From: an uncultured Eubacteriales bacterium
GTDB taxonomy: Bacteria; Bacillota; GCA-003054495; Carboxydocellales; JAJZTU01
DNA: 26,475 nt
Assembly (NCBI GenBank): GCA_964551785.1
Contig: CAZKEO010000001.1
Coordinates: 1-26,475, forward strand
Reading direction: 5' to 3'
The position numbers and the translations under genes were made by a program. The notes beneath the pieces are model-generated. The model searched no databases and was not told where the DNA came from. It was given only the letters and a program-made list of their open reading frames with translations. How positions within the stretch are numbered: position 1 is the first letter of the stretch; the number at the start of each line of letters is the position of its first letter. Of this stretch, positions 10,778 through 23,649 are shown one piece after another.

Positions 10778-12037
10778 TTAGCGTACCGGGCGGCTAAAGC
10801 TACCTAATGCTGTATTGGGAAGTTCTGCTTGAAGTATCCGCAAGAACTCCGTGATGCCGAGAATTTCGTCCGTGCGCTGGGGCAGCAGGGGCCAAAAGTG
10901 GTCTGGATCAATGTTAAGGTTGCGGAATTGGATTAAATCTACCCCAGTCTCCTGCACCAGGCTGATTAAGGCGGCTAGTTCGTCCTCACTGTCTGTTAGG
11001 CCTGGCAAGGTCAGCAGGTTCAGGGAGACATATACTCCGTGGGCTTTGGCTAGCTTAATAGAGTCAATGACGTTAGCTAGGGAGTAGTCTTTGGGTCGGT
11101 AATAGCAATTATAGACTGCTTCACTCGGGCCATTCCTACTGACCCGAATGGCATCTAAGCCTGCTTAACCGATTTTCCGAATTGCTTCCGTATTGCCAGC
11201 GTTAGTATTAATGTTGATCGTGCCTTTGGTGGTTTGACTGCGCAAGGCTTGGATGGCCGGGGCTACCACGCTAAAGGAGAGGGAAGGCTCTCCTTCACAC
11301 CCTTGTCCGAAGCTAATGATCCCTTCCGGGGCATGCTCTAGGTGAGGTAAGGCTAGGTCCACAATCTCCTCCTGGGTGGGCATGAAGCTGATCCTTTGCT
11401 GGGGAGATGGGCAACATTCAGCTGGCTGTAAGGAAATACACCCCAAACAGTTAGCATTACAGACCGGCGAAACAGGGATGCCCCCCTCCCAACGGCTATA
11501 GAAAATATTTTGGGCTGTTAAACAACCATACTCGAGTGAACACTTGGCAAGCTGAGTCAGGATGCGATTTTGAGGGTGGAGGGCCACCTTTTGAGTAACT
11601 AGGTCCGTAAGGTCGCTAGTATTATAACTACAGGGATTCCATTTTGCAGGTCGGTCGGTTGGTACTGCGGCAACGTAAAACTGATCCCGATACATCCCAA
11701 CAGCTGTATAGCCCAGGAGGGGCAGGGGCTGCTGAGCACCCTTCCGCTGGTATGCTGGCAAGAGTGTACGCGTATAACCCTGCGGTAACAGTGCACCTAC
11801 TGCTAAAACTTTTTTATGAACCCCAACCGCTGAAACGGGCCCAAAATTACCCTGGGAGTCAATTCCTACCGGGATTGCCTCAGGAATCAGGGTCAGCGAA
11901 GCCCCTTCCGGAAGGGGGATCATCTCCTCTGGAAGAGGCTCTGTAAACCGGTCTCCTGTCCTGCCAGTCAGAAAATAACTAGGATGGTCATAGAGCCGTC
12001 CTTTGCTGTCGGCATAAAGCATGCTATATTGCATCAA
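10778..12037 (-). pseudogene. Radical SAM protein (419 codons) interrupted by one in-frame TAA at 11165-11167
   Basis: CNANCLGC motif and GCEGEP; the frame continues past TAA as AGLDAIRVS...YYRPKDYS...SLNLLTLPG into ORF 10778..11008 (same frame, 1260 nt total). Confidence 0.85.
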
Positions 12038-13372: not shown

Positions 13373-13864
13373 TTATTTTAGTCTACTGAGCTTCCGCTGT
13401 TGCCGATAGACCAAGGTTCGATGTAAAAAGCAATAAACTAGGGTACCCCAGACCACTGCATTAATTAGACTGCCTACGAAAAAGGGTGGCCCTAAAATTT
13501 GCAAATTATCCATTGAGAAAAAGGCCCTCAAAGAATCCAACGTCAAGCTGGGCTCTAATACCGGAACCTGGTGATCTAAAGAAAGCTGGGTTTTATTTTC
13601 GAGGATTATTTCCCCAATCAAATAATTAAAGGGAAAGAAAATCGTAAAGACAGCTGGCTTTAAAGCAGCAGTTGTCATCACTGCGGCTATCGTATTGATT
13701 CTCACCAATTTTGCGATGATCCAGGCCACCAAGATGCTAATAAAGGGCAAGGGCAGAAAATCTAAAGCAACTCCTAGCGCAACACCTTTGGCAATTTTGG
13801 CAGGGCTGTCTTTTAATCTTAAAATTTTGACATATTGATAGCGAAAATAGCGTCTTAACCGCAA
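13373..13864 (-). CDS. DUF2062 family membrane protein
   Basis: [20 protein letters not shown] motif, YLIGE, GSLINA. Confidence 0.85.
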
Positions 13865-13875
13865 GTTGCCGCCTC

Positions 13876-14355
13876 CTATATAAGTTTCTGAGCCAGGAAA
13901 AGCCTGGTCATTTGGCGATGGTAACGGGAAAATATCTCATAAACTGCGATGTATAATATAGTACCCAAGATTAGTGTGTTCAACAATGCACCTAAGAAAA
14001 AGGCTTTTCCTACGAGCTGATAAATTTTCCAGTCCAATTTAAGTAACCCATGCATGACATATCTTATGTGAGTTATTCCTTGACCGATTAACTTACTGCC
14101 AGTTACGAGGTCAAAATAAAACATGATTGGAAAAAGCGGCTTGAATATAACGTCTCCCAGGAAGCTCGCGGCCAAATTGCCCCTGACTAATCCAGCAATA
14201 AAGATAGCTAGTGGCACACCAAAGCCAAAGGTGGGGTAAAAATTGACACAGGCTCCCAACGCAAACCCCAGGGCGACTCTACCAGGCATATCTTTCAGTC
14301 GCAGAAATTTTAGAATGTTAAACCTAAGCTTTCTTCGCCAAGACACCATCGTCAC
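13876..14355 (-). CDS. DUF2062 family membrane protein
   Basis: FLRLKDMPGRVALGFALGACVNFYPTFG motif, GALLN. Confidence 0.85.
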   Translation of the reverse strand: MTMVSWRRKLRFNILKFLRLKDMPGRVALGFALGACVNFYPTFGFGVPLAIFIAGLVRGNLAASFLGDVIFKPLFPIMFYFDLVTGSKLIGQGITHIRYVMHGLLKLDWKIYQLVGKAFFLGALLNTLILGTILYIAVYEIFSRYHRQMTRLFLAQKLI

Positions 14356-22325: not shown

Positions 22326-22355
22326 TTATTCGGCATGATGCCAAGTTTTCCCTGC
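22326..22355 (-). promoter_or_regulatory. Sigma-H-like promoter (AGGG variant) upstream of rpoE
   Basis: GCAGGGAAA-N12-GCCGAATAA. Confidence 0.45.
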
Positions 22356-22386
22356 TTAGGGAACAACTTTGAACTATTTTGCAAGT

Positions 22387-22417
22387 AAAAAGAGAGGACA
22401 TAAAGTCCTCTCTTTTT
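22387..22417. terminator. Perfect bidirectional-type intrinsic terminator after the cytochrome gene
   Basis: aaaaagagaggac-ataaa-gtcctctcttttt, 13-bp perfect IR. Confidence 0.9.
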
Positions 22418-22426
22418 GAGTCAGTC

Positions 22427-23503
22427 TTACTTTTTCTTTGCCTCTGCAACTGCTTTAGTGGTGACAGGTCCAGCTGGGAACCAGTGACAGGTATTACAAT
22501 AGGTACCTGTGACATTTGCTCCAGGCTGGTTCTTGTCATGGCAAGCAAAGCAGTTCAGTACGCCTTTATTGTTAGCGTAAGATGCGTGTTTACCCATCCA
22601 CTGAGCATCATGATCAGCAGGACGCTTTAGGTGACAACCATAACAATAAGAGTTCGCTCTTGCGAAGTCGGCAATCTGGTCTCCTGTCGAAGGTGTTGCA
22701 AACTTCTGACTTTCCTTATCATAGTGGCACTTGGCGCAGTTGTTGATATCTGCTCTGCCAGGTTTACCATGTGCTACTTTCCACAGCGGATTCTCGTGGG
22801 AAGGTAGAGAGGCTCTATCTGGCCAGTAGTGACAAGCTGCACACTTCGTAGTTACCTTGCGTGCTTCGTGACAATTGATACATACGAACATGTTAGGACG
22901 ACGTTGTACTCCAGGAGCTGCTTTTTGGGCCATTGTAGGATTCCACTGGTCATAGTTCTTGAACTCAGCACGCGTGGTAACTTTGCGTTCTGCAATGTTA
23001 CCATGGGCAATGAACCGGTGACAATCCAAACAAGTTACTTTTGCCTTATCATGCTGATCATGTGGGATAATAATGTCAGGCATCGGTGTGGCTACACGGT
23101 TATTCATGGCATGGCAATCTGTACAAGCCTTATTATCCACTTTGAAATTACGGGTGTTAATAGGCTTGGCAAAGTTGCCACTGTCATGAGCTGCTTTGAA
23201 GTCAGAAACCTTCACGTTGGTATGGCATTTTGTGCACGCAATCCGTGAATGCACGGAAGTCTGCCAGGTAGCTACTTCGGGCCACATTTCATGGCACTCG
23301 GAACACTCATTTCTAGCAATTACGGTATTATCCACCGCTTGGGCTGCAACATTTTCACCAGTAGTCGTAGTTGCTCCTCCTGTAGCTGTAGTTTGAGCAT
23401 TTGGCCCACATCCTACTACTAACAGTGCCATTAATAGCAGCATTACGGGAAAAATAAAAGCAACCTTAAAGAAGCGGGTATTGGCCATTACCTTTTTATT
23501 CAT
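22427..23503 (-). CDS. Decaheme c-type cytochrome lipoprotein (NapC/NirT-like N-terminal half)
   Basis: Ten CxxCH motifs counted (CSECH, CTKCH, CTDCH, CLDCH, CINCH, CAACH, CAKCH, CYGCH, CFACH, CNTCH); signal peptide with LVVG-C lipobox; strong AGGAGG RBS. Confidence 0.93.
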   Translation of the reverse strand: MNKKVMANTRFFKVAFIFPVMLLLMALLVVGCGPNAQTTATGGATTTTGENVAAQAVDNTVIARNECSECHEMWPEVATWQTSVHSRIACTKCHTNVKVSDFKAAHDSGNFAKPINTRNFKVDNKACTDCHAMNNRVATPMPDIIIPHDQHDKAKVTCLDCHRFIAHGNIAERKVTTRAEFKNYDQWNPTMAQKAAPGVQRRPNMFVCINCHEARKVTTKCAACHYWPDRASLPSHENPLWKVAHGKPGRADINNCAKCHYDKESQKFATPSTGDQIADFARANSYCYGCHLKRPADHDAQWMGKHASYANNKGVLNCFACHDKNQPGANVTGTYCNTCHWFPAGPVTTKAVAEAKKK

Positions 23504-23547
23504 TCTTCTTTTTCCCTCCTTTCACTTTTTTAAGAACCTAGTACAAG

Positions 23548-23576
23548 TTATTCGATTCAAATAATTATATTCCTCT
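23548..23576 (-). promoter_or_regulatory. Sigma-H promoter upstream of the decaheme cytochrome
   Basis: AGAGGAATA-N11-ATCGAATAA, full consensus match. Confidence 0.6.
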
Positions 23577-23619: not shown

Positions 23620-23649
23620 CAAAATTCGACACTCGCGGGGAGTGTCGAA
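23620..23649 (-). terminator. argS terminator hairpin containing two inverted TGTCGAA motifs
   Basis: ttcgacactc-gcggg-gagtgtcgaa 10-bp IR, then TTTTGT on the minus strand. Confidence 0.7.

Follow-up and report, generated by a model that had tools for sequence, protein, structure and literature searches.

The stretch of DNA analysed here (the window, 26,475 nucleotides from an uncultured Eubacteriales bacterium labelled Carboxydocellales) contains a decaheme c-type cytochrome gene at positions 22427..23503 on the minus strand, and our results identify this gene as pdcA, the ortholog of the gene for periplasmic decaheme cytochrome A (PdcA) in Thermincola. Overall, we consider it probable that the product is a PdcA-type heme wire, itself probably tethered by a lipid, that serves in an electron-export chain of the Thermincola type. 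Electron export in Gram-positive bacteria is known mainly from four Thermincola cytochromes, and the gene extends PdcA to a second lineage. The protein is of a known kind and is unusual in its genomic place and in its conserved lipid-anchor signal; the invariance of the lipobox, the paralogy with ImdcA of Thermincola and the relocation of the gene refine a system that is already known and do not amount to a new one.

In Pfam, the window protein falls only into generic multiheme families of the class III/c7 type (c7/c3), namely PF14522, PF14537 and PF02085 (50.9, 41.7 and 34.8 bits against gathering cut-offs of 24.8, 25 and 22.9), with NapC/NirT (PF03264) below threshold at 21.2 versus 24.1 bits. 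A large protein search returned about 30 proteins at 60-74% identity, each of about 350-370 amino acids and each with a lipobox and ten hemes. One 90% cluster includes ADG81219.1/WP_013119243.1 from Thermincola potens JR and KNZ69445.1 from T. ferriacetica; ADG81219.1 and KNZ69445.1 are named “periplasmic decaheme cytochrome A” by NCBI, and the PdcA sequence (Tfer_1887) in the supplement of PMC7911101 is the same protein as KNZ69445.1. BLASTP aligned the window protein with T. potens PdcA (TherJR_0333, ADG81219.1) at 68% identity over 306 amino acids, which cover the whole heme domain (E 8e-166), and a reverse search of the window's genome with PdcA placed the window gene first (66%, E 2.7e-155), followed by a second match at 37% identity (E 2.5e-39). 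In a maximum-likelihood tree of 77 family members, a PdcA clade of 44 sequences was recovered with support of 100/100 and a stem length of 0.74, and the window protein lies within it; together with three other proteins (P0002, P0003 and P0004) it makes up one of three deep branches, at the base of the clade. The orthology follows from the reciprocal best match together with this placement. A clear transfer from Thermincola was considered and found unsupported, as the window PdcA forms a deep branch of the clade and is not nested among Thermincola sequences. An earlier note on this DNA, made from the letters alone, had named the ImdcA and PdcA decahemes of Thermincola and suggested a BLAST comparison with Thermincola cytochromes; these were the right proteins, and the comparison singles out PdcA. 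The novelty that the note implied is accordingly lower, since the gene belongs to a named and partly characterised family.

The reading frame is open throughout under translation table 11 and encodes 358 amino acids plus a stop codon. Ten CxxCH motifs, which the note had already counted, begin at residues 67, 90, 127, 158, 208, 221, 256, 287, 318 and 336, and 20,000 shuffles of the residues of the protein gave a mean of 0.06 such motifs and a maximum of three. All ten are aligned and conserved among 29 PdcA orthologs, and the full ten-heme domain (residues 67-342; 22478..23305, minus strand) is delimited by the conservation of motifs and histidines and by 272 columns aligned with ImdcA-like paralogs. 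Outside the motifs, the protein has exactly nine histidines, of which H85, H106, H148, H167, H236, H245, H298 and H306 are invariant in the 29 orthologs and H151 is nearly so; Met73, which lies in the heme-1 motif CSECHEM (residues 67-73), is also nearly invariant. The sole cysteine outside the heme motifs is Cys32. Within the PdcA clade, a subclade (P0014, P0016, P0019, P0021 and P0024; loci L013 and L035) has CATACH or a similar CxxxCH sequence at heme 1, where a plain CxxCH count gives nine hemes, with all other positions conserved.

In the published model of the Thermincola chain, menaquinol is oxidised by ImdcA, which is anchored in the membrane; PdcA, called periplasmic, takes the electrons through the space beyond the membrane; the hexaheme cytochrome CwcA crosses the wall; and the reduction of the external acceptor falls to OcwA (PMC7096707). 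PdcA and ImdcA have been produced in Escherichia coli, where both proved redox-active over more than 400 mV, the hemes of recombinant PdcA being active between about +100 and -300 mV; structure modelling of the two proteins was not achieved by the authors (PMC7911101). The genome assembly of the window (G000; 596 contigs, 2.65 Mb, 86.6% complete) contains 24 open reading frames (ORFs) with at least three CxxCH motifs, including six helix-anchored NapC-like paralogs, and at least five ResB/CcsA pairs. With the imdcA-cwcA cluster of a Thermincola-labelled metagenome-assembled genome (MAG; G019) as the query, homologs were found on two contigs: one of ImdcA (43%) on the short contig C300 (locus L089) and, on contig C134 (locus L081), one of the 17-heme protein at 57% and one of the CwcA hexaheme at 36% (E 6e-56). 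On C134 these two genes and that of a further 11-heme protein follow the order of the cluster used as the query. This set of partners fits the electron-export chain of Thermincola. The stand-alone conduit of the earlier note is therefore not upheld, since the published model makes PdcA one relay, placed between ImdcA and CwcA, and both of these have homologs elsewhere in the genome.

The other half of that proposal, the lipid anchor, is supported. The signal peptide with its lipobox (residues 1-32; 23408..23503, minus strand) has a positively charged N-region (K3, K4, R10 and K13), a hydrophobic segment at residues 14-30, a modelled helix at residues 10-29 and, at the Cys32 where the note had seen a lipobox, the sequence L-V-V-G-C (codon of Cys32 TGT, 23408-23410), in agreement with the pattern [LVI][ASTVI][GAS]C with the Cys within the first 35 residues. 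Lgt was found in the window's genome. Gly31 and Cys32 are invariant in 29 of 29 aligned orthologs, and the linker behind them varies freely in both length and sequence. This linker, which the note had described as Thr/Ala-rich, is a flexible Thr/Ala/Gly-rich tether (residues 33-66; 23306..23407, minus strand) that is modelled as disordered at residues 33-53, where the predicted local distance difference test score (pLDDT) is below 50. A tethered PdcA is more likely because the Gly-Cys pair is invariant in all 29 orthologs, and we think it rather likely that PdcA is a lipid-tethered relay and not a free “periplasmic” protein, with lipidation predicted from the lipobox. To the Thermincola model this adds that the “periplasmic” carrier, with a lipobox in every PdcA ortholog examined, is probably tethered to the membrane; no discussion of the PdcA lipobox was found in the literature that could be searched. 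No Omp85 was found in the window's genome (86.6% complete), which fits a single-membrane cell.

Several points weigh against the combined reading of a tethered relay in an export chain. The Thermincola PdcA made in E. coli is soluble and begins at TAPEK, 10 residues past the lipobox Cys, unless this end arose by clipping of the linker (PMC7911101); for Thermincola itself, the evidence on what PdcA does comes from localisation and in vitro electrochemistry and not from genetics (PMC7911101, PMC7096707); the window's genome is incomplete and spread over many contigs; and among five of its multiheme ORFs tested against the PDB by sequence, no OcwA-type surface reductase was recognised. An OmcS-like protein was likewise not seen among these five, the sole match being a weak one to Hmc, which falls short of showing absence. 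The first of these points would be expected of a freely soluble shuttle between membrane and wall, whose signal peptide is cleaved or which is otherwise released and keeps no lasting lipid tether. The N-terminus of recombinant T. ferriacetica PdcA follows A-P-A and was read by the authors as ordinary signal-peptide cleavage matching the SignalP prediction (PMC7911101), and reviews label the protein as periplasmic (PMC7096707). However, the Gly-Cys pair behind the hydrophobic segment is what the orthologs hold invariant, whereas the linker, including any AxA site, is unconserved; the window protein lacks any AxA site within 20 residues of its hydrophobic segment, and processing in E. coli may differ from that in the native host. 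We thus regard a soluble shuttle as unlikely and retain the tethered relay.

The role in extracellular respiration proposed by the earlier note gains support from PdcA orthology, and to that extent it stands; what lies behind it is in vitro redox work and localisation in Thermincola. A different role, such as that of a donor to a soluble reductase outside the membrane, of a component for electron uptake or of an electron store, might be considered for a gene that is monocistronic, whose neighbours give no functional hint and which is absent from four sampled related genomes (G001-G004) and hence dispensable. Multiheme cytochromes of such size are also often promiscuous. Yet PdcA orthology, combined with the presence in this genome of ImdcA-like and CwcA-like homologs in the Thermincola arrangement, makes such a role very improbable, and respiration of extracellular acceptors remains the purpose that we favour.

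Comparison of the PdcA alignment with an ImdcA-like alignment by hhalign gave a probability of 100% and an E value of 4.5e-65 over 272 columns, with all ten hemes included and 32% identity, and on this alignment PdcA is a full-length paralog of ImdcA. Members of the ImdcA-like group have a membrane helix directly before the block “FC..CH.M.PE”, and for the ImdcA-like protein encoded in the window's genome the match to the full NrfH model has an E value of 3.4e-21. For the window protein itself, the best solved relative in phmmer is NrfH of Desulfovibrio vulgaris (2j7a_C, E 0.004, residues 61-170), in which CTSCHIM aligns with CSECHEM and Lys82, presumably a residue with a role at the quinol site, aligns with Lys103. 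An NrfH/NapC-like N-terminal tetraheme module can thus be assigned to residues 61-170 (22994..23323, minus strand). The best NCBIfam match is likewise NrfH (TIGR03153; E 2.5e-7, 30.8 bits versus a cut-off of 134.2), and TIGR02161 is also below threshold (14.9 versus 310.6 bits). With the AlphaFold model of the window protein (mean pLDDT 74), which is built without hemes, VIA-align ranked NrfH (2j7a_C) first at a modest Z of 5.7, the next being 3.4, with a root-mean-square deviation of 4.6 over 115 of 145 residues at 26% identity. Foldseek found nothing significant in the PDB, with NrfH at the top at an E value of 0.8 (range 0.8-2.2), and the C-terminal six-heme part (residues 230-345) had no VIA-align match. 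Because of the paralogy with ImdcA and because NrfH is the top relative by both sequence and structure, PdcA seems to be a decaheme of NapC/NrfH descent, with a lipobox and a flexible linker substituted for the helix. What this adds to the Thermincola model is that PdcA and ImdcA are full-length paralogs, apparently derived from a NapC/NrfH-type module. A sister group of PdcA (P0040, P0043, P0045, P0046, P0049-P0051 and P0054) has ten hemes at 43-46% identity and no lipobox; its members begin with a hydrophobic segment and then have a linker of about 20 residues, a layout intermediate between those of ImdcA and PdcA.

As an alternative, the window protein might itself be a menaquinol dehydrogenase of the NapC/NrfH type, with a lipid in place of the helix, that passes electrons directly from the quinone pool to outside acceptors. 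It shares the CxxCHxM motif and the following PE..TWQ.S.H block with both the ImdcA-like group and NrfH, Lys82 of NrfH has its aligned counterpart in Lys103, and NrfH is its best structural match. On the other hand, the helix that abuts heme 1 in NapC, NirT, NrfH and the ImdcA-like proteins is not found, and the order is instead the Cys32 lipobox, a disordered linker of about 34 residues and then Cys67. Electron paramagnetic resonance (EPR) of purified PdcA detected only low-spin hemes, whereas ImdcA gave a high-spin signal such as is associated with quinol sites (PMC7911101). In addition, the scores against NrfH and NapC models lie far under the curated cut-offs, and the genome retains several helix-anchored paralogs for that task. 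We therefore consider a dehydrogenase function improbable for the window protein. In its general form, the proposal that PdcA-type proteins are lipid-anchored NapC/NrfH quinol dehydrogenases which have kept the quinol site at heme 1 (CxxCHxM plus Lys) strikes us as quite improbable; if true, a single mobile gene could alone link the menaquinone pool to outside acceptors, which would account for its spread and survival as a monocistronic unit at three or more different genomic sites. A relay that receives electrons from a separate dehydrogenase is the function that we continue to assume.

The genomic position of pdcA differs among its carriers. In T. potens JR the order is rplM-rpsI-pdcA-(small ORF)-amidase_3-LigB/AMMECR1, and the rpsI-amidase site holds an ortholog in 13 other distinct loci, which come from Thermincola-labelled MAGs, Phosphitispora sp. 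TUW77, HGW-Firmicutes-14, UBA2595 and others. The order argS-[pdcA]-rpoE is found in the window and in the sources of P0002 (73% identity) and P0004 (67% identity), and a third context is seen on a short contig on which P0003 (80% identity in the heme domain) adjoins a SWIM-domain gene. In five related genomes, two of the family of the window (G001 and G002), two of the same order (G003 and G004) and the Thermincola-labelled MAG that supplied the partner query, argS and rpoE lie next to each other, 167-452 bp apart, versus 1437 bp in the window. Since the two genes adjoin each other in all five, pdcA has indeed been inserted, with the argS terminator on one side and the rpoE leader on the other, and the insertion into the argS-rpoE block that the earlier note had described is borne out. 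The comparison of synteny that it had suggested thus places the gene at argS-rpoE in the window and two close relatives and at rpsI-amidase in Thermincola; a near-identical ortholog in one and the same place throughout the relatives, which it had named as evidence to the contrary, was not what we observed, as the ortholog is only 68% identical and lies at another site. Orthology is not called into question by the different site, since a protein family is not defined by where its genes lie.

One edge of the inserted segment is marked by a conserved leader element upstream of rpoE (22326..22360, minus strand), a 35-nt sequence just downstream of the pdcA terminator with 82-88% identity to its counterparts in G001, G002 and the P0002 locus. 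Its pattern is AGCAGGGAAAAC..T..CAT.ATGCCGAATAA, and it may be a leader or operator of the delta-subunit-like (rpoE-like) gene. The pdcA terminator itself is a hairpin with a perfect 13-bp stem between an A-run and a T-run (22387..22417, minus strand; -19.3 kcal/mol, z -5.6). At the opposite side, the argS terminator hairpin (23625..23649, minus strand; -21.5 kcal/mol, z -3.8), which is followed by a U-run, insulates pdcA from upstream transcription. The terminators on both sides are as the note had described them, and so are all the other features that it had seen. A ribosome-binding site, GGAGG, is located 10 nt 5' of the ATG (23514..23518, minus strand). The hexamer TATAAT about 60 nt upstream of the start codon (23564..23569, minus strand) is a weak candidate for a -10 box; it has no good -35 partner and does not appear in the output of a consensus promoter scan. 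Two further features were looked for and not seen: no direct or inverted repeats of the sort that would mark a mobile element flank the gene beyond the terminator, and the GC content of pdcA (46.0%) is close to that of argS (46.7%) and of the window (45.1%), with no compositional anomaly.

In the window's genome, the contig with rpsI (C380) overlaps the contig with the amidase gene (C64) by 45/46 nt, and no remnant of pdcA was detected at this rpsI-amidase site (blastx E > 0.1), where the gap of about 940 bp consists of a dispersed repeat. At the same site in G001-G003 there is no pdcA. Among five genomes of its GTDB class, the window's genome is the only one with a PdcA ortholog, with none in G001-G004. 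Trees of the flanking genes mix carriers (the window and the sources of P0002 and P0004) and non-carriers (G001 and G002) within one family-level group, and the presence or absence of pdcA is therefore polymorphic among close relatives. Either one gain with later loss or spread by recombination may lie behind this pattern; the two trees of flanking markers order G001, G002 and the window differently. In terms of the Thermincola model, pdcA acts as a single-gene unit complete in itself, which some close relatives have and others lack and which is found in different housekeeping gaps.

The repeat in the rpsI-amidase gap (G000 C380:2596-2821 and C64:7135-7894; loci L069 and L068) belongs to a dispersed family with two modules of about 200-250 bp, which are found again, at 75-92% identity, on over 60 further contigs and frequently lie at contig ends. 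The gap contains a 53-bp internal inverted repeat. The repeat family probably explains the fragmented assembly. No Rfam family was matched at gathering thresholds in the gap, or in the window and the rpsI spacer.

We propose the following course for the protein. The precursor would be exported by Sec, Cys32 would be lipid-modified by Lgt, which the genome encodes, and the signal peptide would be cut just before this residue. Ten hemes would be attached by the System II (ResB/CcsA) machinery encoded elsewhere in the genome; in nine of them the second ligand would be His and in the tenth Met. Once mature, the protein would have about 327 residues and would be held at the outer face of the cytoplasmic membrane by a disordered Thr/Ala tether some 34 residues long. 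Electrons would enter from a helix-anchored menaquinol dehydrogenase of the NapC/NrfH type, for which the ImdcA-like paralog on C300 is a candidate, and would leave to cell-wall cytochromes such as the CwcA-like hexaheme encoded on C134, the likely purpose being respiration with physiological acceptors that presumably lie outside the cell. In evolution, the protein may have arisen from an ImdcA-type cytochrome that exchanged its membrane helix for a lipobox and tether, and in this lineage its gene is a single-gene unit, with its own ribosome-binding site and terminator, at the argS-rpoE site rather than at the rpsI-amidase site of Thermincola.

All other window genes scanned with Pfam lie on the same strand and are housekeeping genes or encode domains of unknown function, in line with the earlier observation that no partner or maturation genes are nearby. 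They include atpB, a UDP-GlcNAc 2-epimerase gene, glyA, rpiB, tsaC, prmC, prfA, rho, glpX, tal and fba, as well as sppA, pyrG, the rpoE-like gene, argS, a DUF1934 gene and a POR subunit gene. At 10778-12037 on the minus strand, a radical-SAM-like protein (CNANCLGC) is seemingly split into a 290-aa ORF (11165-12037) and a 76-aa ORF (10778-11008) with about 155 bp between them, which could reflect a pseudogene, a frameshift or an error of assembly; Pfam gave no match for the 290-aa ORF at E <= 0.01. Between rho and glpX, two tandem DUF2062 paralogs of 163 and 159 aa are located at 13373-14355 on the minus strand.

Compared with known systems, the window protein resembles MtrA/DmsE of Shewanella (TIGR03508) in its ten hemes, its similar size and its proposed service as a relay from a quinol dehydrogenase to a surface reductase. 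MtrA, however, lies inside an outer-membrane porin, whereas no Omp85 was detected here, and TIGR03508 has no match to the window protein at E <= 1 while other cytochromes of the same genome do match it; the resemblance is an analogy, not family membership. With NrfH of D. vulgaris (PDB 2J7A/2VR0) and with NapC/NirT/CymA, it shares the CxxCHxM motif and the conserved Lys, its first four hemes aligning with those of NrfH, and differs in having ten hemes versus four, no membrane helix and scores below the family cut-offs. Homology to ImdcA (TherJR_1117/Tfer_0070) and its 12-heme relatives spans ten hemes, with the heme-1 block C..CH.M.PE..TW..S.H in common. ImdcA has an uncleaved helix directly before heme 1 and a high-spin heme, whereas the window protein has a lipobox with a 34-residue linker and, by analogy with PdcA, would contain only low-spin hemes.

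Thermincola PdcA is the closest counterpart, with the same ten heme motifs, nine extra His, a lipobox, a linker rich in Ser, Thr and Ala, and the single-gene layout. Its His count was reported to suffice for nine bis-His hemes, with one probable Met ligand (PMC7911101), and the nine extra His and Met73 of the window protein agree with this assignment. The two differ in their genomic site, which is rplM-rpsI-[pdcA]-amidase in Thermincola and argS-rpoE here, and in their hosts, which belong to different GTDB classes. Whereas the literature treats the Thermincola protein as soluble, the conserved lipobox suggests a tethered protein.

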